Positions 4,284-63,244 of a DNA stretch of 64,000 nucleotides are shown one piece after another. A model generated the notes under the pieces. The model worked only from the letters and a program-made list of their open reading frames with translations. It was not told the DNA's origin and searched no databases. A program made the position numbers and the translations under genes. Source of the DNA: a virus (Duplodnaviria > Caudoviricetes); the IMG/VR virus record IMGVR_UViG_3300033233_001970. One strand, written 5' to 3'. Numbering within the stretch: position 1 is the first letter of the stretch; every line of letters begins with the position of its first letter.

Positions 4284-4505
4284 ATGAACGCTTGTGACCA
4301 CGGCGTCATGTTCAACGAAACCGAAGCCAGAAAACTCATTGAGGGCTGGGCCGCCGCAGACGAGGTCGAGTTCATCATGGGATGCCCTGCGAGCGCCGAA
4401 GTGCGCAAACGATGGCCTCGGCTCAACGGCTCATGCCCGAAGGGCTGCGGATACGTCGGTATCGCGTACGCATCGCACGAACACTACACCTATGGAGATT
4501 GGTGA
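4284..4505 (+). CDS. small Cys/His hypothetical phage protein
   Basis: CDHG...WPRLNGSCPKGCGYVGIAYASHEHYTYGDW; coupled to the next gene. Confidence 0.6.
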   Translation: MNACDHGVMFNETEARKLIEGWAAADEVEFIMGCPASAEVRKRWPRLNGSCPKGCGYVGIAYASHEHYTYGDW

Positions 4506-5041
4506 TGGTCGATCCGCGTCGCGAAAAGAAACCCGTCAACACGCTGCCGCCATCGCCGCCGCTCCATGTGACGCTCGAGGAAGCGCGCGCGTGGCTGCGG
4601 AAGATTATGTGGCAGAAGAAAGTACCGTGCCCGTGCTGCAAACAAGATGTCAAAGTCTACAAAAGACAAATTAATCGCACGATGGCGAAAGCTCTTATTC
4701 GTCTGCACTTCTTCGATGAAGAGTGGGTGCACGTCCCGAGCGTTATCGGATTTTCAAGAATGGGCGGCGATTTCGCCAAAATGGGCTGGTTTGGGCTCGT
4801 CGAGGAAAAAGATGAGATCAAAGACGACGGCAATCCGCACGCGGGCTTTTGGCGTATTACGGAACTAGGCCGTCAATATGTGCGTGAGCAAGCGAAAGTT
4901 CCTTCTTTCATTCTGATTTACAACAACAGAGTTTTGAAATCATCGGAAGATCAGATTGGAATTCGCGACGCGCTCGGAAAGAAGTTCAACTACGACGAAT
5001 TGATGCGCGAAGCGATTGAGAGTTCGGGGAAGACGAAATAA
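4505..5041 (+). CDS. putative winged-helix DNA-binding protein with CPCC
   Basis: TGATG-coupled start; CPCC; WRITELGRQYV resembles a wHTH wing motif; stop lies 2 nt before pentamer tract 1. Confidence 0.55.
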   Translation: MVDPRREKKPVNTLPPSPPLHVTLEEARAWLRKIMWQKKVPCPCCKQDVKVYKRQINRTMAKALIRLHFFDEEWVHVPSVIGFSRMGGDFAKMGWFGLVEEKDEIKDDGNPHAGFWRITELGRQYVREQAKVPSFILIYNNRVLKSSEDQIGIRDALGKKFNYDELMREAIESSGKTK

Positions 5042-5042
5042 C

Positions 5043-5113
5043 GGCTGGGCTTGGTTTGGCTAGGCATGGCAAGTCATGGCTGGGCGCGGCGAGGCAAGGA
5101 CTCTTTAAGGGGT
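5043..5113 (+). ncRNA. GGY-NN pentamer tract 1 (11 units) plus 3' hairpin; putative guide RNA
   Basis: GGCTG GGCTT GGTTT GGCTA GGCAT GGCAA GTCAT GGCTG GGCGC GGCGA GGCAA, then GGACTCTTTAAGGGGT; intergenic. The repeat is seen directly; RNA status is inferred. Confidence 0.75.
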
Positions 5114-5124
5114 AAGGAACCATC

Positions 5125-5724
5125 ATGAAAATCACAAAATTGAAAGCAGTCATCAAAGGAATTCGTCCGCTTCTCATGCACAACGGTCGTTTGCGCGATC
5201 CGCTCGATCCGCATTCGAAAGCGCTGTCCTCGGCGGTGAAGAAGGCAAAAACGTCAAAGGCAGATGACGACATTCTAGAATCCCAGCGCACGGAGTTCAT
5301 CGGCGGTTTCTACTTCGATGAGAAGTGTGGGCCGTGCATCCCTGCCGACAACCTTCAAGCAATGCTTACCGAGGGCGCACGGAAGCGAAAGCTCGGTAAG
5401 CAAGTCGAAGCGCTGGTGCAAGTAACGGAGCCGTCTGACGGCGCTATCGGTTACAAGCTCGAATACAAGGGGTCGCGCGATCCCGAGAAGATGTTCGAGG
5501 ACGAGCGTCATCGTTTCACGAAGTCATGCAAGATCGGTCAGTCGGCGGTGATGCGAACACGCCCGCGCTTCCCCGATTGGCAACTCGCGTTCGACATCGA
5601 GATCACGGAGGGCGGCCCAACGAAGGAGCAGATCCAAGAGGCTCTCGAAGATGCGGGCTTGCTCATCGGACTCGGCGATTGGACTCCGCGTTACGGGCGA
5701 TTCGAGTTGGTGTCACTGAGCTAG
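5125..5724 (+). CDS. stand-alone Cas7/RAMP-superfamily-like RNA-binding protein
   Basis: N-terminal strand IKGIRPLLMH; PCIPADNLQAML resembles the Cas7/Csm3 PxIPxxSxKG motif; RTRPRFPDW; C-terminal Gly-rich loop GLLIGLGDWTPRYGRF; AAGGA RBS; no other cas gene nearby. Confidence 0.8.
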   Translation: MKITKLKAVIKGIRPLLMHNGRLRDPLDPHSKALSSAVKKAKTSKADDDILESQRTEFIGGFYFDEKCGPCIPADNLQAMLTEGARKRKLGKQVEALVQVTEPSDGAIGYKLEYKGSRDPEKMFEDERHRFTKSCKIGQSAVMRTRPRFPDWQLAFDIEITEGGPTKEQIQEALEDAGLLIGLGDWTPRYGRFELVSLS

Positions 5725-5727
5725 CAA

Positions 5728-5823
5728 GGCGCGGCAGGGCCGGGCACGGCATGCCGGGGCTAGGCTTGGCACGGCTCGGCTCGGCATGGCCAGGCCAGGC
5801 AGGGCAAGGACTCTTCAAAGAGT
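5728..5823 (+). ncRNA. GGY-NN pentamer tract 2 (16 units) plus 3' hairpin; putative guide RNA
   Basis: 16 pentamers at 5728-5807 (NN = GC AG CG AC AT GG TA TT AC TC TC AT CA CA AG AA; unit 6 is GCC), then GGACTCTTCAAAGAGT. Confidence 0.75.
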
Positions 5824-5840
5824 ATGCAAATGAAAATCTT

Positions 5841-5916
5841 GGCTTGGCGTGGCGCGGCGAGGCAAGACACGGCTGGGCGGGGCAAGGTCAGGCGAGGCAA
5901 GGACTCTTAAAAGAGG
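5841..5916 (+). ncRNA. GGY-NN pentamer tract 3 (12 units) plus 3' hairpin; putative guide RNA
   Basis: 12 pentamers at 5841-5900 (NN = TT GT GC GA AA AC TG GG AA CA GA AA; unit 6 is GAC, unit 10 is GGT), then GGACTCTTAAAAGAGG. Confidence 0.75.
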
Positions 5917-5922
5917 ACAATC

Positions 5923-6336
5923 ATGAACAAGAATGAAATCGACACGATCGTTATGGAAATGGTTGACGAGTTGCTCAAAGTAGAGCGATTCACTCGACAA
6001 GATTTCATGAATCGTTGGCCATACCATCCGGCCGTGTTCGGCGACCTGCTCACGCAAGCTTTCGACATTGTTCGAAACGATCATGGAATTGAGTTTCGTC
6101 CTGGTCCTTACGGTAGCGTGCAACGCGCAAATTACAAAGAGACGATCAATCGCTCGCATCGTCAGCGAAAAGCCGCGCTCAAGAAACTCGAACGAAGCGC
6201 AGCACGAGCGGACGTATCCGCGAAAATGGCTACCACAACGAAAGAGCGAGAAACAGCAGAGAAGATGGCTGATCTTCAAAAACTTCAGCTCACTGCGGCG
6301 AAAGTACGATCGCGTAAACGACTTTCGGCTGTATGA
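5923..6336 (+). CDS. accessory protein embedded in the pentamer-tract array
   Basis: 137 aa; AGAGGA RBS; basic helical C-terminal half; bracketed exactly by tracts 3 and 4. Confidence 0.75.
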   Translation: MNKNEIDTIVMEMVDELLKVERFTRQDFMNRWPYHPAVFGDLLTQAFDIVRNDHGIEFRPGPYGSVQRANYKETINRSHRQRKAALKKLERSAARADVSAKMATTTKERETAEKMADLQKLQLTAAKVRSRKRLSAV

Positions 6337-6344
6337 AATCGCAC

Positions 6345-6414
6345 GGCTTGGCCAGGCTGGGCGCGGCTGGGCGAGGCCAGGCTGGGCAAGGCAAGGCAGG
6401 GACTCTTCAAAGAG
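6345..6414 (+). ncRNA. GGY-NN pentamer tract 4 (11 units) plus 3' hairpin; putative guide RNA
   Basis: 11 perfect GGC-NN units at 6345-6399 (NN = TT CA TG GC TG GA CA TG AA AA AG), then GGACTCTTCAAAGAG. Confidence 0.75.
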
Positions 6415-6637
6415 ATTCGGCAATAAGTGAGAAGTGCTCGGGGCTGATGTGGCCGCCGATATCATATTTTACACCCGCCGAAGGCGTGGCTGCTGGAATT
6501 GCCAAGGAACGAATGGCCATCGAATCCCTCTGCCGATCCCTCCACGAGCCCGATGGACGAGTTTACGCGCTTCGTACCTTGGAGTTGATCGGCAGCAACG
6601 CCGCTGAGCGTACGCGTCGAGAAAAGTCGGAAAGGAA

Positions 6638-7273
6638 ATGAGCGACAAACCCGTCTGGCCGCGCGGTAAGCCGATCCCGAGCTTCGAAAGCTACGCGGAC
6701 GAGGTGAAGTTTTGGCACTCGTACGACTTCGATGATGGAGGCGAAGGTTGGGAAGAGGTACCGAAGGCGTGTCCGTGTCCGCAATGCCGTAAGCCAGTTG
6801 ACATCGGCCCGACACCGCCGGACCAGTGCCGCCATTGCATGATGCTGGCGACCGAGGCCGCGTCGGACGATCTCTTGATCTACTGTTTCGGTCACGAGGG
6901 CCAGTATCACGAGTTTGGTGATTCGGACTGGTCAGGGGAAACGGCCAAGCGATGGGCAAAGGCCAACAAGGTGCTGAGGCGTGCGTGGGAGCCGCCATCG
7001 GCCGGAGCGGCGCACGGGCTCGGTTTCGCTCCAGGCGAGCACGAAGAAGCCGTCGAGGACTACGAATTCGACGTCCGGTTCAACGCAAATTTGACCGATA
7101 GTCTCGCCGTTCTTCTTCGTCGCGTGCTCAAGGATGGCGAAGCCAGAGACCGCGCTGAAATCGTGAAAATCATCGAAGAACATCGTGAGAAATGGCGCAC
7201 GATGTACGAACAAGATACGACCGCTCAGATCGTCATCGGCGAGCTCGGGCGTGTGATCATGCGTATTCGTTGA
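6638..7273 (+). CDS. hypothetical protein with N-terminal antitoxin-like motif and Zn-ribbon
   Basis: AAGGA RBS; IPSFESYADEVKFWHSYD; CPQC...CRHC. Confidence 0.6.
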   Translation: MSDKPVWPRGKPIPSFESYADEVKFWHSYDFDDGGEGWEEVPKACPCPQCRKPVDIGPTPPDQCRHCMMLATEAASDDLLIYCFGHEGQYHEFGDSDWSGETAKRWAKANKVLRRAWEPPSAGAAHGLGFAPGEHEEAVEDYEFDVRFNANLTDSLAVLLRRVLKDGEARDRAEIVKIIEEHREKWRTMYEQDTTAQIVIGELGRVIMRIR

Positions 7274-9596: not shown

Positions 9597-9959
9597 ATGG
9601 GACACGCGAACACCACGAACATCAGCCAGTGCTTCAATCGACTCATTCATCGTGGCGGCGTATCGGTCCGTGAATGCATCGAAGAGCTCAAGCGGCGTGG
9701 CGAAGCGGTTCACGCTTCAGAGGGAGATCTGGACGAGCCCTACATGCTCGGCATGGTCGTCGAGCAGATTGTTTCGTGTCTTTTCGAGGAATGCCTCATC
9801 GAGCCGATCGATTTGACACGCAAACAGAAAGCCATCTTCAACGCTTGGAAGCGTGAAGAAAACGGAGATTGGGACAGCGGAGACGATGGCGACGGAGGCG
9901 AGTACGGAATTTTCGATTCCATCAAGTGGCGGGCCACAATTCGTTATTTGGAAAACTGA
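9597..9959 (+). CDS. hypothetical protein
   Basis: Fills the gap; TGATG-coupled to the ARH gene. Confidence 0.55.
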   Translation: MGHANTTNISQCFNRLIHRGGVSVRECIEELKRRGEAVHASEGDLDEPYMLGMVVEQIVSCLFEECLIEPIDLTRKQKAIFNAWKREENGDWDSGDDGDGGEYGIFDSIKWRATIRYLEN

Positions 9960-10852
9960 TGAAACACCCGAACCCACTCATGCTCGTTCGGATCGCGCAA
10001 GGCGATGCTTACGGTCTCGCGACCGAATACATCAAGTTCCCGAGAGACCAGGCCATCTACGACAAGGCGCTGAAGTTCGAGTCGTACGGCCAACATCCGA
10101 CGCATTCGCTCAAGCCTGGCTGCTACAGCGATGACACGCAGATGTCGATCGGTGTGACGGAGGTGCTGCTCGAAGAAGAGGGTTACTTCGTGCTCACCAG
10201 TCGTTTCGCTGAAGCGTTCGTGCGCTGTTTCAAGCGCGATCCGCGCGATGGCTATGCGCGAGGTTTCCAAGCGTTCCTTGAGACGGTCAAAGACGGATCG
10301 GACTTCATCGCGAGGATCGATCCAAAATCCGACAAGAACGGCGCGGCCATGCGTTCGGTGCCGCTCGGCGTGCTCGCGGATCCCATTCATGTGCGGTACA
10401 TGGCCAACCTCCAGGCGAAGCTCACGCACGACACGTTGCAGGGCGTGGAGTCGTCGATTCTCGTGGCGCTGATGAGTCACTTCGCCCTTCACACGGACGA
10501 ACCATTGAGCCGTCTTCCCGAGTGGCTAGAAAAGCAATTACCTGCCATAGTGCCGAGATTCATCGCGCCCTGGGAAGGAGGTCCGGTGAAGGTTCCAGAA
10601 GTTGGCATCAACACGGCGCGTGCTGTGATGACGCTTCTCGCGACGGAGACGAGCCTGATTGGCATCGCGAAGCGAACGATCGAGTGGGGTGGCGACACCG
10701 ATTCCGTGCTCGCGGTCGCGTGGGGCATCGCGAGCGCGCGTTTTCAGAACGAGCAGCTTCCGATGTTCTTTGACGGCGGGCTCGAGAATGGTCCGTATGG
10801 ATACAAATTCCTGAAAGAGCTCGGCACCAAGCTCATGGGGAAATATGCATGA
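9959..10852 (+). CDS. ADP-ribosylglycohydrolase (DraG/ARH family)
   Basis: Family motifs GDAYG, SDDTQMS, NGAAMR, LTH and GGDTDS are all present in order. Confidence 0.92.
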   Translation: MKHPNPLMLVRIAQGDAYGLATEYIKFPRDQAIYDKALKFESYGQHPTHSLKPGCYSDDTQMSIGVTEVLLEEEGYFVLTSRFAEAFVRCFKRDPRDGYARGFQAFLETVKDGSDFIARIDPKSDKNGAAMRSVPLGVLADPIHVRYMANLQAKLTHDTLQGVESSILVALMSHFALHTDEPLSRLPEWLEKQLPAIVPRFIAPWEGGPVKVPEVGINTARAVMTLLATETSLIGIAKRTIEWGGDTDSVLAVAWGIASARFQNEQLPMFFDGGLENGPYGYKFLKELGTKLMGKYA

Positions 10853-16904: not shown

Positions 16905-16934
16905 AGGGGAAACTCATGAAGGGGAAACTCATGA
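16905..16934 (+). repeat. 15-bp perfect tandem duplication of RBS plus start codon
   Basis: AGGGGAAACTCATGA occurs at 16905-16919 and 16920-16934. Confidence 0.9.
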
Positions 16935-17287
16935 AGGTTATCGATCCGAAAACCGATCGCCAAAAACTTCTCATCGACTTCCCGCTAGGCGTCTACGAGC
17001 ACTACAAGGGCGGCCTCTACACGGCCTACAGCGTGTCTTTGCACGAAGAGACGCTCGAGACGCTCGTCCACTACTACGCGCACGAACACAAAACCCGTTG
17101 GACGCGGACGTTCTCGAATTTCAAGGAGACCGTACGTAGTCCCGAAACAGGTCGAGATCGGCCTCGTTTTCGTTTCGATCGGGCAGCGACACAGCTCGAG
17201 TTTCTCGTCGCGTCGCAGAACGAGTACCTTGCTGGCCAGCTCGCGAAGTTCGCGGAGGCGACGGATTACTTTTCGAAGCTGGGTTGA
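16916..17287 (+). CDS. DUF1653-like protein
   Basis: GVYEHYKGGLY...HEETLETLVHY...WTR..F.E...RF. Confidence 0.75.
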   Translation: MKGKLMKVIDPKTDRQKLLIDFPLGVYEHYKGGLYTAYSVSLHEETLETLVHYYAHEHKTRWTRTFSNFKETVRSPETGRDRPRFRFDRAATQLEFLVASQNEYLAGQLAKFAEATDYFSKLG

Positions 17288-20418: not shown

Positions 20419-21123
20419 ATGGCCATCGAACTGCCTCCTGGTATCACATGCCCGGATTATCAGACCGATCCCAACGATCCGAAAGGAAGACGTTGCCTTC
20501 ACTACGCCGCAGGCGGCGAATGCAGGCACGAAGTACGCGTTCTTCGGCTCGAGACGGTCTGCATCGAGTGGGAAAAGGCGAAGCTAAAGGCGGACGCCGC
20601 CAAGGGTGACGTACAACTAACGAAGGTCGACACGAGTACCCTACGGAGCGCTGCCGAGGTCGCCGTCAAACCTCCGGTGATGCCAGCGTTCAAAACGCCC
20701 TCCGCCGCGTCGCTCATCGCCCTCCCGCCAGGAGCGAGGCCATCCGTCCAGCAGCCTCCGCAACCACCGAACGGCGCTTTCGCGCTCGGAGCGTCGCCGC
20801 CACGCCAAACGGCCGCTGAGCGCGCCAGGGCGGCCTTTACGGGGGTCGAGACCGTCGAGCGGAAGAAGCTCGGCATCCTCGAGCCTCCAGCCTTCACGGC
20901 GGCGAAGGAAATCTCACCCGAGTCGATCGAGGCGCTCGAGAAGGCGGTGGAGGAGATCCATCTCGTGAGCGAAGATTTGGGAGATTTGTGGATCGTGAGA
21001 AAGAAAACCGGAAAAGATAGGCTGGAATTGAGCTTTTCTGAGATGTCTACACTTAGGCTTCTAGTTGATTCATTTCCTGGTGCACGTATCATCAGTGTGG
21101 TACGACCTGATGACGATCGATGA
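20419..21123 (+). CDS. hypothetical protein (Cys N-domain, Pro-rich linker)
   Basis: AGGGG RBS; ATGA overlap to the HNH gene. Confidence 0.65.
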   Translation: MAIELPPGITCPDYQTDPNDPKGRRCLHYAAGGECRHEVRVLRLETVCIEWEKAKLKADAAKGDVQLTKVDTSTLRSAAEVAVKPPVMPAFKTPSAASLIALPPGARPSVQQPPQPPNGAFALGASPPRQTAAERARAAFTGVETVERKKLGILEPPAFTAAKEISPESIEALEKAVEEIHLVSEDLGDLWIVRKKTGKDRLELSFSEMSTLRLLVDSFPGARIISVVRPDDDR

Positions 21124-21956
21124 AAAAGTATACAAAAGATGTGATTGAACGCGTTTTGGCATGCATCCAGAACAATCCTAGCTTTACACGCGTCGTTGTC
21201 GCGGAAAAGTGTCAGGTGCCACTCACGCTTGTTTACGATCTCGCTCGTGGGCGAATACGGAACGTCAGCGCGGTAATAGGTCGCAGGAAAGGCAATCAGC
21301 GACTTACCGCAGAGGACATGTCGCTGGCTACAGTGATGCGGTCAAGAGGGGCGACGTATACTGAGATCGGTAAACATTTAGGCATTAGTAAAGGGCATGC
21401 TCGAAGAATAGCGTTGGACGGCAAGCGAAAAGAAAGCGGTGCCGAGCGTAAACCGAGAACGAAACTTACTAAGGGGAAAATAATTGAACGGTTCCTGAAA
21501 TTGGTGCGAAAGGGGCGCCCGGATGCTTGTTGGCTGTGGCAAGGAATGATTAATGAGGCCGGTTACGGCTGTTATGGCGGAGACCTAAGCCAAGAATATT
21601 TTGGTAGCAATCTTGCGCATCGTATCATTTTTGAGATTGAGCACGGACAGCGCCCTGTCGTCGTTATGCACAAATGTGACAATCCTCCGTGTTGCAATCT
21701 GGCACATTTACTAGGCGGAACGCACGCGGAGAACGCAGAAGATTGTCGAAACAAAGGCAGAAACAAATTACCTCCGGCCTTACAAGGAGGTACGAATCCA
21801 ATCGCAAAGCTCAGCGAAGATCAGGTACGTAAAGTTATTCTTCGTTTAGCCAACGGAGAAAGTCAAACGGAAATAGCGACGGAGCTTAATGTGAGCTCGT
21901 CTCTTATTACCGGAGAAGCGTGGTCGCATGTTTCTCGAGAGCTGGGCAAACTATGA
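21120..21956 (+). CDS. HNH homing endonuclease with HTH domains
   Basis: ACWLWQG...GYG...LAHRI...VVMHKCDNPPCCNLAHLLGGTHAEN; AKLSEDQV HTH tail; visibly more AT-rich than its flanks. Confidence 0.88.
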   Translation: MKKYTKDVIERVLACIQNNPSFTRVVVAEKCQVPLTLVYDLARGRIRNVSAVIGRRKGNQRLTAEDMSLATVMRSRGATYTEIGKHLGISKGHARRIALDGKRKESGAERKPRTKLTKGKIIERFLKLVRKGRPDACWLWQGMINEAGYGCYGGDLSQEYFGSNLAHRIIFEIEHGQRPVVVMHKCDNPPCCNLAHLLGGTHAENAEDCRNKGRNKLPPALQGGTNPIAKLSEDQVRKVILRLANGESQTEIATELNVSSSLITGEAWSHVSRELGKL

Positions 21957-26258: not shown

Positions 26259-27071
26259 GTGGAGCCGGTGAAGCTCGACGGTGGCTACGCCCTTCTCGCT
26301 GACGCGAGCGAGCCGGCGACGCGTGCTCGAGTGCGGGAGATAACGGGATGCGTGCCGCTAATCCTGACCGATCCGCCGTACGGTAAAATACTGTCCGCGA
26401 AATGGGATCACGTTATCGAGAAGGAAGAAGACTTCGTCGAATGGATGATCGACTGGACGCGGACGTGGAGCGACATGCTTTTGCCAGGAGGCATGTTCGC
26501 GGTCTGGGGCGGAATAGGCACTCCAGGATTTAGACCTTTTTTCCGATATATCCCAGAAGTTGAGAGGCGGTCCGAATTGAAACTGTCCAACCTCATTACC
26601 TGGTCCAAAAAAAGAGCGTACGGCACCGCTACAAATTTTCTGTTTACTCGCGAGGAGCTAGCCCTGTTCACGCTCGGCGACGTAAAACGCCCGCGATGTT
26701 TCAATATTCCACTTTTGGAAACCAAGCGGCCGTATCCAGGTTTCAACGCTGACTATCCAGCAAAGAGCGAGTATTACAGACGAACCAACGTCTGGACCGA
26801 TATAACCGAACTTTTACGCGGCAAAGTTCATCCGGCGCAAAAAGCTCAACGCGTTATGGAAATACCTATTGAGGTATACACTCAATCTGGTGAGTGGGTG
26901 GTCGACATGTTCGTTGGATCTGGCACGACAGCTTTGGCGGCCCGCAAGCTCGGACGACGTTTCTTCGTTATCGAAAAAGATGAGAAGACGTTCGAAGAAA
27001 TGGTCGAGCGTCTTCGATCGGGAACCACGACCGAAACCGGAGCCGTTCAAGACGGATGGGACGAGCTATGA
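26259..27071 (+). CDS. orphan N6-adenine/N4-cytosine DNA methyltransferase (beta class)
   Basis: LILTDPPY catalytic motif precedes HPAQK and the SAM-binding VVDMFVGSGTT. Confidence 0.9.
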   Translation: MEPVKLDGGYALLADASEPATRARVREITGCVPLILTDPPYGKILSAKWDHVIEKEEDFVEWMIDWTRTWSDMLLPGGMFAVWGGIGTPGFRPFFRYIPEVERRSELKLSNLITWSKKRAYGTATNFLFTREELALFTLGDVKRPRCFNIPLLETKRPYPGFNADYPAKSEYYRRTNVWTDITELLRGKVHPAQKAQRVMEIPIEVYTQSGEWVVDMFVGSGTTALAARKLGRRFFVIEKDEKTFEEMVERLRSGTTTETGAVQDGWDEL

Positions 27072-28984: not shown

Positions 28985-29644
28985 ATGATCAACGAAACAC
29001 GAACGAAGCTCGCCGAATTTTGGCGCGACCTTGTTTGTCGGCTCGACGGAAACGACGCCGAGGCCGAATTCGTGTACTGGGAAATTCTCGCCAAATATTA
29101 CACAGAGCCGCACCGTCACTACCACACGCTCGAGCACATCCTAAAGTGCTCGAAAACGCTTCACGAGCTCGTGGCTCCGTACACGATTCAGCGGCCTGAA
29201 GATCTCATGCAGATTGCGCTGTTTTTCCACGACGTCATTTACGATCCGAAACGCAAAGACAATGAAGAGAGGAGTTCGGATGTCTGCGTCGGCGCGTGCG
29301 CGCTCGTCGGGATCGATCGTACGATCGCGGGTCAGGCTGCGCGCATCATCCTCGCCACAAAGCACACGGGCATCGTCCCGGAAGACGATCGTCTCACGCA
29401 GTGGGTTTTGGATGTCGACTTGTCGTCGCTCGGAGCTCCGCCAGAGGAATTCGACCAAGACAGCGCCAACATCCGCAAAGAATACAATTTCGTACCCGAC
29501 GACGATTACAGAAAGGGGCGCGTGAAGATCCTTCAGAGTTTTCTCGATCGTCCTCGAATCTACTTTACGGACGCGTGTCACGATCGGTTCGAAGAGCAGG
29601 CGCGCGCGAATCTCGAGCGAGCGATCCGAGAGCTCTCGACGTGA
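28985..29644 (+). CDS. HD-superfamily metal-dependent phosphohydrolase
   Basis: YTEPHRHYHTLEHI, FHDVIYDP, NEERS, DVDLSSLG, IRKEY. Confidence 0.88.
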   Translation: MINETRTKLAEFWRDLVCRLDGNDAEAEFVYWEILAKYYTEPHRHYHTLEHILKCSKTLHELVAPYTIQRPEDLMQIALFFHDVIYDPKRKDNEERSSDVCVGACALVGIDRTIAGQAARIILATKHTGIVPEDDRLTQWVLDVDLSSLGAPPEEFDQDSANIRKEYNFVPDDDYRKGRVKILQSFLDRPRIYFTDACHDRFEEQARANLERAIRELST

Positions 29645-30294
29645 GAATTCCGAAGCAAGCCGAGCGCATCGGTCGGCTCGTGATTCTGGGCGATGCCGGA
29701 GTCGACGGCTTCGGCCGAAAATTGGTTCGAGTCAAATGCGAATGCAAAACGATCAAGGTTCTCGTAGAGCGCAGTCTTCGTCACAACAAGACGCAGTCAT
29801 GTGGGTGCCTTCAAGTCGAGAGTGTGAAGAAACGTAATACGAAGCACGGTCACGCGGCAAACGATAGCGCTACACCCGAATACGAAGCGTGGCGGACGAT
29901 GATGCACCGCTGCTACGTGAAAACAACGGATAGCTATCCGTACTACGGTGGCAAAGGAATTGGCGTTTGCAAGAAATGGCGAGAGAACTTTGTGGCATTT
30001 CTCGCCGATCTCGGAAACAGACCTTCTGACGATCACGTGCTTTGCCTGCTGGATAAGGACAAAGATTTCAAACCAGGAAACGTAAGATGGCTAACGCTCT
30101 CGGAAGCCAATCGAAAGAAACGAAGCAACACGTTTTACACCGTCAACGGTGTCACCAAGTGTTTCGTGGACTGGGCGACAGAATACGGAATCCCAAAGAA
30201 CACGCTGCATTACCGTGTCGTCACGAAGGGGATGCCGATGCGTGACGCGCTCGATATCGGTAGAGGACGACAGGGAAAGGTGTTGCCAGAATGA
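29641..30294 (+). CDS. phage HNH-like endonuclease-family protein with a degenerate catalytic motif
   Basis: CEC..SCGCL..HGH..EYEAW..M..RC..YGGKGIGVCKKW..F..FLADLGNRP..GNVRW; the usual DRIDN segment reads CLLDK. Confidence 0.75.
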   Translation: MRIPKQAERIGRLVILGDAGVDGFGRKLVRVKCECKTIKVLVERSLRHNKTQSCGCLQVESVKKRNTKHGHAANDSATPEYEAWRTMMHRCYVKTTDSYPYYGGKGIGVCKKWRENFVAFLADLGNRPSDDHVLCLLDKDKDFKPGNVRWLTLSEANRKKRSNTFYTVNGVTKCFVDWATEYGIPKNTLHYRVVTKGMPMRDALDIGRGRQGKVLPE

Positions 30295-32935: not shown

Positions 32936-33132
32936 CGAATGAGAACGGGGTGTAAAGCGCGCGTTGCAGATCACACGGACACCGTGGACTGTGGTGATTC
33001 CGTTCTGCGCGCGGAACGATGTGCCGTGCATCTGCACGAAGAGGTGGACGATCTTCGGCGCGAGATTCATGAGCACGAAGAAGCTATCGTCAAATGCCGA
33101 TCGCGGCTCGCTCAACTTCAAACGGAATCGGG

Positions 33133-34356
33133 ATGACGCAAATGGCAGCGAAACTGTCCGACCTCGCCGTTTTTCGTAACGAGCACCTTAGCGTCTCAAG
33201 GTTGCGGCTTTACGAGCAATGCCCGCGCGCTTTTTACTTCCGGTACGTCAACAAAGGAGAGACCGCGCCGCGCGGTGAAGCCGCCGCGTTTGGTACCGCG
33301 CTACACGCCGCGCTCGAGCTCATCTATCAATGGATCATCCGCGAGGAATACTCCGGACTTTTCCCGATGGATCAGCTCGTCGAGTGTTATCGGCAGGCGT
33401 GGCAGGAGAGCAAGCTTACCGATGTAGCCATGTATCAAGAAGGGCTCCAGATCCTTCGCATGTACGCGCGCTCGCGCGGTCCGATTGATCATTTCAGCAT
33501 CCTTGCCACCGAGCAAGAATTCAACGTCGATGTCGATGGATTTGTAATGAATGGGTACATCGATCGTGTCGACAAGGTCGATGACGACGCTCTGAAGATT
33601 GTAGATTTCAAGTCGAACCGAAAGCTCTACTCAAGAAACGAGCTCGACAGCGATCTTCAGATGAGTGTGTACGGCATCGCCGCGCGCCATCTGTATCCGT
33701 GGGCCAAGCGTGTGACTTTTGAATTCCACATGCTGCGCTTCGATGTCATCCAAAAAACGGAGCGTACGTCTCAGCAGATCGATGACGCTCGCGGATACGT
33801 CGTGTCCCTCGGACGTCAGACCGAATCCGACACGACCTGGGAACCTCGGCTCAACGAAAACTGCGCGTACTGCGACCACAGGAGACGTTGCGACGCGTAC
33901 GCGAAGGCCGTCCAAGGAAAAGCCGACATCACGAAAGTGGTCGACCCGAACGACCTCACACAGATCGCCAAGGAGCGCGCCGAGGTCGCACGGCTCGCAA
34001 AAATGATGTACGCGCGCCAGAGGGAGCTTGACGATATTTTGAAAGCCAAGCTCAAAGAAGAGGGCGAGTACGACGTCGGCAGCTTCCATGTTCGTTACAT
34101 CAACTCGTTCGAGAGGTCGTACCCGATCGCGAGAACCATTCAGATTTTTGAACGGGTGGGTGTACCGCGCGAAGAAATCGAGAGACGGATTCTTACGGTT
34201 GACAAGGACGCTGTGAGTGATTTGCGTATCTCAGTCACGGAGAAACTCGAGCGCGGACCCGCGCTTCTTCTCAAAGCCGAGCTCGAGGCCGTCGAGGAAA
34301 AGACGCCAGGAACGCCAAGGCTCGACGTGCAGACGATCAGGGGGAACAAGAAATGA
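33133..34356 (+). CDS. PD-(D/E)XK nuclease, RecB/AddB/Cas4-like with four-Cys cluster motif
   Basis: SVSRL..YEQCPR, FGTALH, GYIDRVD, IVDFKS, QMSVY, CAYCDHRRRC. Confidence 0.9.
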   Translation: MTQMAAKLSDLAVFRNEHLSVSRLRLYEQCPRAFYFRYVNKGETAPRGEAAAFGTALHAALELIYQWIIREEYSGLFPMDQLVECYRQAWQESKLTDVAMYQEGLQILRMYARSRGPIDHFSILATEQEFNVDVDGFVMNGYIDRVDKVDDDALKIVDFKSNRKLYSRNELDSDLQMSVYGIAARHLYPWAKRVTFEFHMLRFDVIQKTERTSQQIDDARGYVVSLGRQTESDTTWEPRLNENCAYCDHRRRCDAYAKAVQGKADITKVVDPNDLTQIAKERAEVARLAKMMYARQRELDDILKAKLKEEGEYDVGSFHVRYINSFERSYPIARTIQIFERVGVPREEIERRILTVDKDAVSDLRISVTEKLERGPALLLKAELEAVEEKTPGTPRLDVQTIRGNKK

Positions 34357-62169: not shown

Positions 62170-62991
62170 TCACGATGCCGACTTCTTCTTTTCCAGCGAC
62201 CGCATGAGAAGCTCGGCGAGATCGACGACGCCGACGCTCGCGATCCCAGGCCCCTTCGCCGCAGAGGGCACGCCATCGCCCGCGCCGTCCACGATATCGC
62301 CCGCCGCCGCCTTGGCGTCCGCCGCTTCTTCGACGGAAGCGCGGTAGGTATCGATGAGCTTTGTGGGATCGAATGCCGAGGTCAATTCGTCCACGAGCTT
62401 CTCGGCCATTTCACGCTCACGCTCGGTGATGTTTTTGACATCGGGTCGCGCCAGCGTTTCCGAGCTCACGATTTCTTCCGGGTAGCGCATCGTTTCGATG
62501 GCGAAAAATCCGTCCCTTGCACGCAAAAGACCGAGCCTTGGTTTTGTCCGTAATTTGATCTTCACGAGCGCAGCGCGCCCCGTGTCCGCCAAAACCATCC
62601 GCAAAAGCTCGAAACCTCGAGCGCTCTTCGGACTCTTTCCGCCCGGAGCGATCCAATAGCTTTTCTCGAAGTACGCGGAATCGACCTCGTTTGGATCGAC
62701 GAACTGCACGATTTCGATCGAGCCTTTCGTCTCCTCGCCGCCATCCATTTCGGCAAGCTCTTCTTTCGTGAAGAAAGCGTACTTGCCATCGCCGATCTCG
62801 TAGCCCTTACCAATCTCCTCCCACGGCACATCGACCGCGCAGGATGCGCAGCGCCGGATCAGATTGATCCGCGTTCCACAAATGGTGTGAAGCTGGTTGA
62901 ACTTCGGGGCGAGATCCTTCGTCGCGCTGTAGAGCTTGACGGGGATCGTCACCATTCCAAACACGATGTCTCCGGTCCAAAATGCTCTCAT
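62170..62991 (-). CDS. ku: Ku DNA end-binding protein (NHEJ)
   Basis: MRAFWTGDIVFGMVTIPVKLYSAT...FNQLH...EIGKGYE...IEIVQFV...YFEKSYW...VVDLAELLMRSL; AAGGAG RBS. Confidence 0.95.
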   Translation of the reverse strand: MRAFWTGDIVFGMVTIPVKLYSATKDLAPKFNQLHTICGTRINLIRRCASCAVDVPWEEIGKGYEIGDGKYAFFTKEELAEMDGGEETKGSIEIVQFVDPNEVDSAYFEKSYWIAPGGKSPKSARGFELLRMVLADTGRAALVKIKLRTKPRLGLLRARDGFFAIETMRYPEEIVSSETLARPDVKNITEREREMAEKLVDELTSAFDPTKLIDTYRASVEEAADAKAAAGDIVDGAGDGVPSAAKGPGIASVGVVDLAELLMRSLEKKKSAS

Positions 62992-63244
62992 TGGTTTTCT
63001 CCTTCGCTTTTTCCCAATGCGCTTTCGATGACGTGAGCGACGCGCTTTTCGAGATTCTTGATTTCTCGGTAGTACGCCTCTCGCGCCCGACTGAACTCGT
63101 CGTATTTTTCGCGATTTTGCGTTCCGTCTTCGTTTGTGACGCCAGCGTCGTTCGGGAACGTCGGCCATACGAGTCCGCGCACGGTGCAGCGCACGTCGGC
63201 GCCTCCGTCTGCGTGAAGCTTTACGAAGCAAACTTGATCGATTT

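Follow-up and report, generated by a model that had tools for sequence, protein, structure and literature searches.

The 64,000-nucleotide (nt) stretch of Caudoviricetes DNA analysed here (IMG/VR record IMGVR_UViG_3300033233_001970, hereafter the window) very probably carries, at positions 5043-6415, a VIPR (Viral Interference Programmable Repeat) system in which the gene vipr is accompanied by four vrRNA genes and by an accessory gene (vap) for a predicted winged-helix protein. This kind of system is already known from three 2026 preprints (bioRxiv 10.64898/2026.04.26.720920,.720927, 2026.10.15.759431), hereafter the VIPR preprints, and the window locus adds a further example. As described there, the minimal RAMP protein Vipr is joined in such a system by vrRNAs and, in most cases, by a single accessory gene, vap. 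Each vrRNA has 9-16 YNNGG repeats with a constant GGY and a hypervariable NN dinucleotide, followed by a conserved structured 3' tail. The original prediction, made from the bare letters of the window, had proposed a non-CRISPR RNA-guided system and noted a resemblance to VIPR; the resemblance is real, as seen from sequence homology to the Vipr of phage SUSP1 (PDB 36pp), and the novelty that had been held possible falls away with the prior description in the preprints. The identification draws on this homology, on the RAMP fold and GG-binding residues of the protein, on the architecture of the guides, on an arrangement that is kept in related loci and on covariation in the tails of the guides. 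The features of the locus are as follows, the bounds of the vrRNA genes being those of sequence features and the ends of the RNAs being predictions only.

5043-5113, plus strand: vrRNA1 gene; 11 GGY-NN units at 5043-5097 (unit 7 degenerate, GTCAT), followed by GG and the tail hairpin (5100-5113)
5125-5724, plus strand: vipr, 199 amino acids (aa); minimal RAMP protein with an RRM core, a thumb beta-hairpin and the glycine-rich loop GLGDWTPRYGRF
5728-5823, plus strand: vrRNA2 gene; 16 units at 5728-5807 (unit 6 degenerate, GCCGG), followed by GG and the tail hairpin (5810-5823)
5841-5916, plus strand: vrRNA3 gene; 12 units at 5841-5900 (unit 6 degenerate, GACAC), followed by GG and the tail hairpin (5903-5916)
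5923-6336, plus strand: candidate vap, 137 aa; predicted winged helix (residues 1-69) and C-terminal antiparallel helical hairpin (residues 70-131)
6345-6415, plus strand: vrRNA4 gene; 11 regular units at 6345-6399, followed by GG and the tail hairpin (6402-6415)

The sole match of the 199-aa protein among PDB sequences was the entry named 'SUSP1 Vipr protein' (36pp_D; phmmer E 2.2e-29, query residues 7-195 on chain residues 5-187), and a tblastn search of phage genomes returned 130 records at 32-39% identity, most of them from the Felixounavirus group, which includes SUSP1, with Pseudomonas phage Medea1, Gordonia phage Trine and Mycobacterium phage LittleE among the others. The window protein is roughly equidistant from those of wV8 (SUSP1-type), Medea1 and Trine, at pairwise identities of 35-40%. 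It matched PHROG 4652, a family of unknown function (E 8.5e-45), and gave no match in Pfam or NCBIfam. All of the motifs that had originally been read as RAMP hallmarks are present (RPLLMH at residues 14-19, PCIP at 70-73 and GLGDWTPRYGRF at 182-193), and the RAMP/Cas7 fold assumed from them is borne out by structure comparison: the AlphaFold2 model, built with 27 homologues, had a mean predicted local distance difference test (pLDDT) score of 93.4 and gave 83 PDB matches at E <= 1e-3 in Foldseek, the best 50 of which were RAMP chains from type III Csm/Cmr and type VII complexes, mostly Csm3/Cas7. The PDB library used for this comparison ends on 8 April 2026, and no Vipr chain was returned from it.

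The residues with which Vipr holds the guide are likewise kept. In the cryo-EM structures of SUSP1 Vipr, the first two guanines of each repeat (G1 and G2) are held by H17, R138, D177 and W178 (bioRxiv 10.64898/2026.04.26.720920,.720927, 2026.10.15.759431), and these align to H19, R146, D185 and W186 of the window protein, the correspondence having been established by aligning the window protein to its SUSP1-type counterpart in phage wV8. All four are invariant or at least 90% conserved among the 27 homologues. For the clamp on the non-target DNA strand, formed in SUSP1 by K82, G87, K88 and R39, the corresponding residues of the window protein are R86, G91, K92 and K42.

Direct reading of the region 4700-6800 confirmed the predicted gene order (tract 1, 199-aa gene, tracts 2 and 3, 137-aa gene, tract 4) and the predicted counts of 11, 16, 12 and 11 pentamers. 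Across the 50 units of the four tracts, the first position was always G, the second was G in 47 and the third was C in 48 and T in 2, giving a perfect GGY in 47/50 units with GTCAT, GCCGG and GACAC as the exceptions, and the fourth and fifth positions each had an entropy of 1.9 bits, with 14 of the 16 dinucleotides in use; the constant GG(C/T) and variable dinucleotide of the original prediction therefore hold. Each tract lies, as had been stated, strictly between a stop codon and the following start codon: tract 1 between the stop of an upstream open reading frame (ORF) at 5041 and the vipr ATG at 5125, tracts 2 and 3 between the vipr stop at 5724 and the ATG of the 137-aa gene at 5923, and tract 4 downstream of the stop of that gene at 6336. 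The claim that the pattern occurs nowhere else in the 64 kb also stood, in that a regular-expression search of both strands found runs of at least four consecutive GG(C/T)NN units only at the tracts of the locus, where base composition alone would lead one to expect approximately 0.36 runs of at least 4 units and approximately 2e-9 runs of at least 10. The tracts are also the sole family of direct repeats of at least 22 nt within 200 nt in the window.

The association of such tracts with vipr is not peculiar to the window. A large protein database contained 89 Vipr homologues, and for four of these, with Vipr sequences 82, 76, 57 and 54% identical to that of the window, seven metagenomic loci were examined, among which L002-L004 are copies of one locus and L005 and L006 are copies of another. 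GGY-NN tracts were present beside vipr, on the vipr strand, in all seven, in agreement with the prediction that homologues would be flanked by (GGYNN)n tracts, and a homologue of the 137-aa gene was situated just downstream of vipr in every related locus examined. The number of guides differs among the relatives, the 82% identical relative having eight, and their NN content is unrelated to that of the window, being completely different even in the 82% identical relative, in keeping with the hypervariability described in the VIPR preprints. A single-protein search of the viral contig collection found no related locus.

Several further VIPR-type arrays were encountered. The locus L007, on a 242-kb JGI contig and with a Vipr 54% identical to that of the window, has at least eight tracts at 5600-6800 with many degenerate units and GCGG/CCGC hairpins, adjoining genes with IF3, HNH and RRM_1 Pfam domains, which makes it a further case of VIPR on a very large element. 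In phage Trine (MH271318.1, L009:3085-3400), GGC-NN tracts lie downstream of the vipr homologue, each followed by an element of approximately 55 nt containing a tRNA-like T-arm, GGTTCGACTCC. In two sediment runs (X1 and X2), many short contigs resembled the window in the tracts alone (5714-5915 and 6320-6420; 80-90% likeness), and their loose ends run on into further GGC-NN units or into other tails, which suggests that numerous other GGC-type VIPR arrays are present in these habitats; run X2 also contained fragments approximately 96% identical to part of vipr.

Every one of the four tracts is followed by GG and a hairpin in which ACTCT and a complementary arm enclose a 4-nt loop, the common ending that had been noted originally; in vrRNA1 this takes the form ACTCT / TTAA / GGGGT, with two G-U pairs. 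The hairpin, of 4-5 bp and directly after the GG that ends each window tract, keeps its position across 30 tails from 5 loci, over which the stems vary between CTCT/AGAG (window), CGC/GCG, CCC/GGG, GCGC/GCGC, GCAC/GTGC and GCGG/CCGC, and GCAC/GTGC represents a double change inside a single locus that otherwise has GCGC/GCGC. In a position-anchored count over these tails, 84% of stem cells were paired, compared with 66 +/- 2.5% (maximum 73.5%) in shuffles with the 3' halves permuted, and although optimisation of loop length favours pairing, the shuffle control was optimised identically. Stem position 3 was paired in 30/30 tails, with five pair types. This pattern of compensatory variation, seen by comparison of the loci, lends good support to an RNA structure.

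Two further observations concern the tails. The 3' arm of the vrRNA3 hairpin (AGAGG) overlaps a likely Shine-Dalgarno sequence, AGAGGA, located 6 nt before the vap ATG at 5923 (window 5903-5925), such that folding or processing of the guide could affect translation of vap; the overlap is also found in L001 and is absent from L002 and L005. In L002, from an anaerobic digester, approximately 40 nt are conserved after the tail hairpin, ACGAGGTYGAGCCG ... TCCCTCTC (5661-5720, 5781-5840 and 5895-5950), a segment that could pair GAGG with CCTC and that makes the tail longer than that of the window.

An explanation of the tracts as something other than RNA genes, namely as arrays of binding sites for the winged-helix protein, as recombination-prone microsatellites or as Gly/Ala-rich coding repeats, is hardly credible given these data. 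It could appeal to the ORFs that cross the tracts (5526-5936 and 6333-6641 on the plus strand, 5815-6465 on the minus strand) and to the annotated coding sequence of Trine gp40, which begins inside such tracts. The ORFs in the window are, however, mechanical, the repeat period of 5 is not a multiple of 3, and the annotated start of gp40 within the tracts indicates that its N-terminal ~100 residues are probably mis-called. Moreover, the tracts are confined to the vipr strand in every locus, the 3' hairpin shows the covariation expected of a structured RNA, and the RNAs from the GGY-NN tracts of SUSP1 have been sequenced and co-purified with Vipr (VIPR preprints).

For the 137-aa product of the second gene, which had no Pfam, PHROG or NCBIfam match, a model could be built from five sequences only (pLDDT 88.6). 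The modelled fold begins with a helix-strand-helix-helix-strand-strand unit and ends in two long helices that run antiparallel. In VIA-align comparisons, residues 1-69 matched the winged-helix domain of a MAGE protein (Z 10.2, root-mean-square deviation 1.6 A), and the C-terminal half resembled generic helical hairpins. Foldseek and Atlas searches listed Mga, WYL-regulator, TrmB, MarR/SarA and viral winged-helix proteins, with no PDB match at E <= 1e-3 in Foldseek, and in the Atlas whole-length neighbours were found among hypothetical proteins, two of which, at template-modelling (TM) scores of 0.62-0.63, fell in mostly viral clusters. On the basis of this model the protein is read as a DNA-binding accessory protein, consistent with the winged-helix-like vaps of published systems, and it resembles vap1 of SUSP1 in size and position.

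The mode of action can be proposed by homology with the systems of SUSP1 and P. fulva, for which the VIPR preprints report that one Vipr protomer is bound per repeat, with GGY sequestered and NN presented, and that the filament engages double-stranded DNA (dsDNA) with every third base skipped, forming an R-loop triplex and repressing transcription. By this analogy, the window locus would be transcribed on the plus strand, and each tract with its hairpin tail would yield a small vrRNA along which Vipr protomers would polymerise, one per pentamer, to assemble a ribonucleoprotein. Each GGY would be flipped into a protein pocket, with the NN dinucleotides offered for pairing, and the filament would bind dsDNA by reading NN-x-NN-x (the 1-nt-skip rule), with a resulting R-loop triplex that would block transcription. 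The accessory protein would assist in this process; in SUSP1, vipr and vap1 are both required (VIPR preprints). The natural guides of SUSP1 and P. fulva are aimed at satellites, prophages and other VIPR systems (VIPR preprints), and a likely role for the window system, on the same analogy, would be the silencing of genes of competing phages, satellites and other mobile elements in the host. The original prediction had anticipated this scheme (one subunit per 5 nt, GGY bound and NN exposed, silencing rather than cutting, use against competitors), and its proposal agrees with what the preprints describe for SUSP1 and P. fulva.

Action on RNA could be argued from two points: the closest solved folds outside Vipr are those of RNA-targeting Csm3/Cas7 proteins of types III and VII, and SUSP1 Vipr filaments can pair with single-stranded RNA in vitro (VIPR preprints). 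A reading of the locus as VIPR-derived but directed at RNA, as in type III CRISPR, instead of at the silencing of dsDNA, is nonetheless very improbable: in SUSP1, filaments on RNA usually halt at 7 subunits, and completion requires DNA as the third strand (VIPR preprints), the residues of the non-target-strand clamp are retained in the window protein, and no nuclease gene adjoins the locus.

Several results weigh against the reading of the locus as a VIPR system. Three SUSP1 contacts are changed in the window protein (K33 to S35, R179 to T187 and C173 to I181). In SUSP1, R179 and C173 line the pyrimidine pocket and R179 stacks on the pyrimidine (VIPR preprints), and the pocket positions R179, C173, E71 and M72 are occupied by T187, I181, D75 and N76 in the window; the guides nevertheless carry C or T at position 3 in 50/50 units despite the changed pocket residues, and the pocket positions C173 and M72 do not appear to be family-wide, since Medea1 and Trine also differ from SUSP1 there. 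The window tail is a 14-nt hairpin, with nothing conserved 3' of it among the four copies and neither a pseudoknot nor a longer conserved tail seen among them, as compared with the ~40-nt pseudoknot of SUSP1. No BLAST link was found between the window vap and the vaps of wV8, Medea1 and Trine, and the hhalign probability was 1.6% from shallow alignments (5 and 3 sequences); as there is no detectable sequence relation, the window gene is not called vap1. No sigma-70-like promoter was found within 4300-7000, with the limit that this consensus may not be that of the host, and a terminator scan gave one unconvincing site on the minus strand. Finally, no natural target was identified, the matches obtained being indistinguishable from chance; for an element from uncultivated sediment organisms this outcome is no surprise.

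The target searches used four xNN guide patterns, in which each GGY was replaced by one wildcard following the rule in the VIPR preprints. On both strands of the 64 kb, none of the guides matched above guides with shuffled units, the best scores of 15/22, 20/32, 16/24 and 16/22 being equal to the shuffle maxima in a scan that spans about one quarter of the carrier contig, in agreement with the absence of self-targeting that is reported for VIPR (VIPR preprints). Full-length exact patterns had no matches for vrRNA4 in viral, metagenome and genome contigs or for vrRNA3 in viral and metagenome contigs, and the exact vrRNA2 pattern minus its last unit had none in genome contigs; exact-match scans of this type would miss targets at 80-99% match, which the published systems accept (VIPR preprints). 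The AT-rich vrRNA1 pattern, with its degenerate unit masked, gave two matches in unrelated, AT-rich viral contigs of approximately 33-40% GC, with the skipped base on codon position 2, not on the wobble position; these were judged to be chance. Sub-patterns of 18 specified bases from vrRNA2, vrRNA3 and vrRNA4 gave 1, 1 and 0 matches, respectively, and at these sites the rest of the guide fails (21/32 and 18/24). When the 18 guides of the window and its relatives were compared with one another's loci, nothing exceeded the null.

The missing targets and promoter-like site, together with the one degenerate unit in 3/4 guides, might be taken as signs of an inactive or decaying VIPR remnant whose guides are no longer expressed or used. 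Such decay is highly improbable in light of the intact vipr and vap frames, the conserved functional residues and the predominance of perfect GGY units, internal degeneracy being frequent in working vrRNAs as well (VIPR preprints). The relatives, furthermore, share the architecture but differ in their guides, a combination indicating turnover under selection. The reading of the locus as a VIPR system, with vipr, a winged-helix accessory gene and four guides, is preferred.

The locus was present in two sediment metagenome DNA runs and in no listed RNA run, and in the source run the whole window lay within one identical contig, the Vipr carrier being a contig of 246,055 bp from a sediment metagenome. 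Of the surrounding genes, 30 larger ORFs of the window were compared with PHROGs, ten of them also with Pfam, and ten smaller neighbouring ORFs were compared with Pfam only. These searches indicated a Ku-like DNA-end-binding protein (62170-63231), two HNH endonucleases (21120-21956 and 29296-30294), a DNA methyltransferase (26259-27071), an ADP-ribosylglycohydrolase (9869-10852) and a PD-(D/E)XK nuclease (33094-34356; Pfam PDDEXK_1 at E 6e-36, PHROG 69 exonuclease). The last of these also had a sub-threshold match to an NCBIfam Cas4 model (19 bits compared with a cut-off of 65) and is probably a phage RecB/Cas4-like exonuclease outside the VIPR locus. Among the other 31 of the 40 ORFs tested no family was assigned, except for a nucleoside deoxyribosyltransferase-like protein and matches to two PHROGs whose function is unknown. 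Just upstream of vrRNA1, the gene at 4382-5041 matched PHROG 2693 (E 4e-40, function unknown) with a weak zinc-ribbon match, and it was not counted as part of the system because the relatives lack a conserved counterpart of it next to vipr. No tRNA or tmRNA was found in the window, and Rfam gave no match at gathering thresholds. Taken together, the window has the look of accessory DNA from a very large phage or from another kind of mobile element; no structural phage genes were seen in it, and the term phage is accordingly used by inference. Elsewhere in the window, at 16905-16937, an exact 15-nt tandem repeat, AGGGGAAACTCATGA, is present in 2.2 copies and resembles a duplicated ribosome-binding site with its start codon.

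With respect to CRISPR, the original prediction had stated that neither cas genes nor a repeat-spacer array were present. No CRISPR-like array was found in the 64-kb window by TRF and direct-repeat search, and no cas families were found among the genes within approximately 4 kb of the locus, the cas screen having covered neighbours and not every ORF in the window; the statement thus stands for the array across the window and for cas genes near the locus, falling short of window-wide scope for the latter. The label non-CRISPR has to be qualified, since Vipr, in the published phylogeny, is a RAMP lineage with relatives among the CRISPR RAMPs. VIPR has been proposed to be older than CRISPR.

Seven VIPR types have been published, with varying array architectures and with vaps that are winged-helix-like, helix-turn-helix-like or nucleases (VIPR preprints). 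A tentative suggestion is that the clade comprising the window, L001, L002 and L005 could represent a subtype outside these seven; L007 is more distant and keeps the Arg (R188). The features of this possible subtype are a Vipr in which Thr (T187 in the window) replaces the Arg that stacks on the pyrimidine, near-pure GGC guides (48/50 units in the window) and the 14-nt hairpin tail. Guides placed between vipr and a winged-helix/helical-hairpin vap unrelated in sequence to vap1 are a further feature, and the carriers are very large environmental elements, on contigs of 242 to 302 kb. If the clade were indeed a subtype, no capping element known for a Vipr filament would be smaller than the 14-nt tail.

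As a programmable system for RNA-guided binding of DNA, VIPR has been described only recently, and further examples widen the catalogue of Vipr proteins, tails and vaps available for comparison and engineering. The window example leaves the understanding of VIPR unchanged, the mechanism being already in print, and adds a sediment and digester clade with an unusually small tail, which may help to define a minimal vrRNA, along with a compact accessory protein with a predicted winged helix and an interleaved gene order.

Among known systems, the Csm3/Cas7 proteins of class 1 CRISPR (types III and VII) share the RAMP fold with its RRM core, thumb and glycine-rich loop, and they resemble Vipr, as characterised in the VIPR preprints, in polymerising on guide RNA at a fixed step with a thumb that interrupts pairing periodically. 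Vipr would differ, by analogy with SUSP1, in its 5-nt step, in which three guide bases are sequestered and two pair. In contrast to class 1 CRISPR systems, the guides of the window are hard-wired, with no cas1 or cas2 among the tested neighbours. The closest described counterpart is the type II VIPR system of SUSP1 (Vipr, vap1 and four vrRNAs; PDB 36pp), whose Vipr is homologous to that of the window, with the GG-binding residues kept and with approximately 35% identity to the SUSP1-type protein of wV8. Both systems have four vrRNAs, the 11-16 pentamers of the window being within the published 9-16. In each, a single guide precedes vipr and the others follow it, the accessory gene is small (approximately 140 aa), and neither a CRISPR array nor cas genes lie nearby. 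They differ in the constant triplet, which is GGC in the window (48/50) and mostly GGT in the SUSP1-type locus; in the tail, a 14-nt hairpin compared with the long tail (~40-nt pseudoknot) after each SUSP1-type tract; in the vap, which has no detectable sequence relation to vap1; in T187 for R179; and in the carrier, a ~246-kb sediment metagenome contig compared with an 88-kb coliphage. Two guides separate vipr from vap in the window, whereas the two genes abut in wV8, Medea1 and Trine. Among the Pseudomonas VIPR loci, which include the P. fulva prophage clade of the VIPR preprints, that of phage Medea1 likewise has GGY-NN tracts downstream of the gene pair, but its vipr and vap are adjacent, with the array after both, and its vap belongs to the SUSP1/Trine sequence group. 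The Medea1 Vipr is 37% identical to that of the window and 40% identical to the SUSP1 type, such that the three lineages are roughly equidistant from one another.

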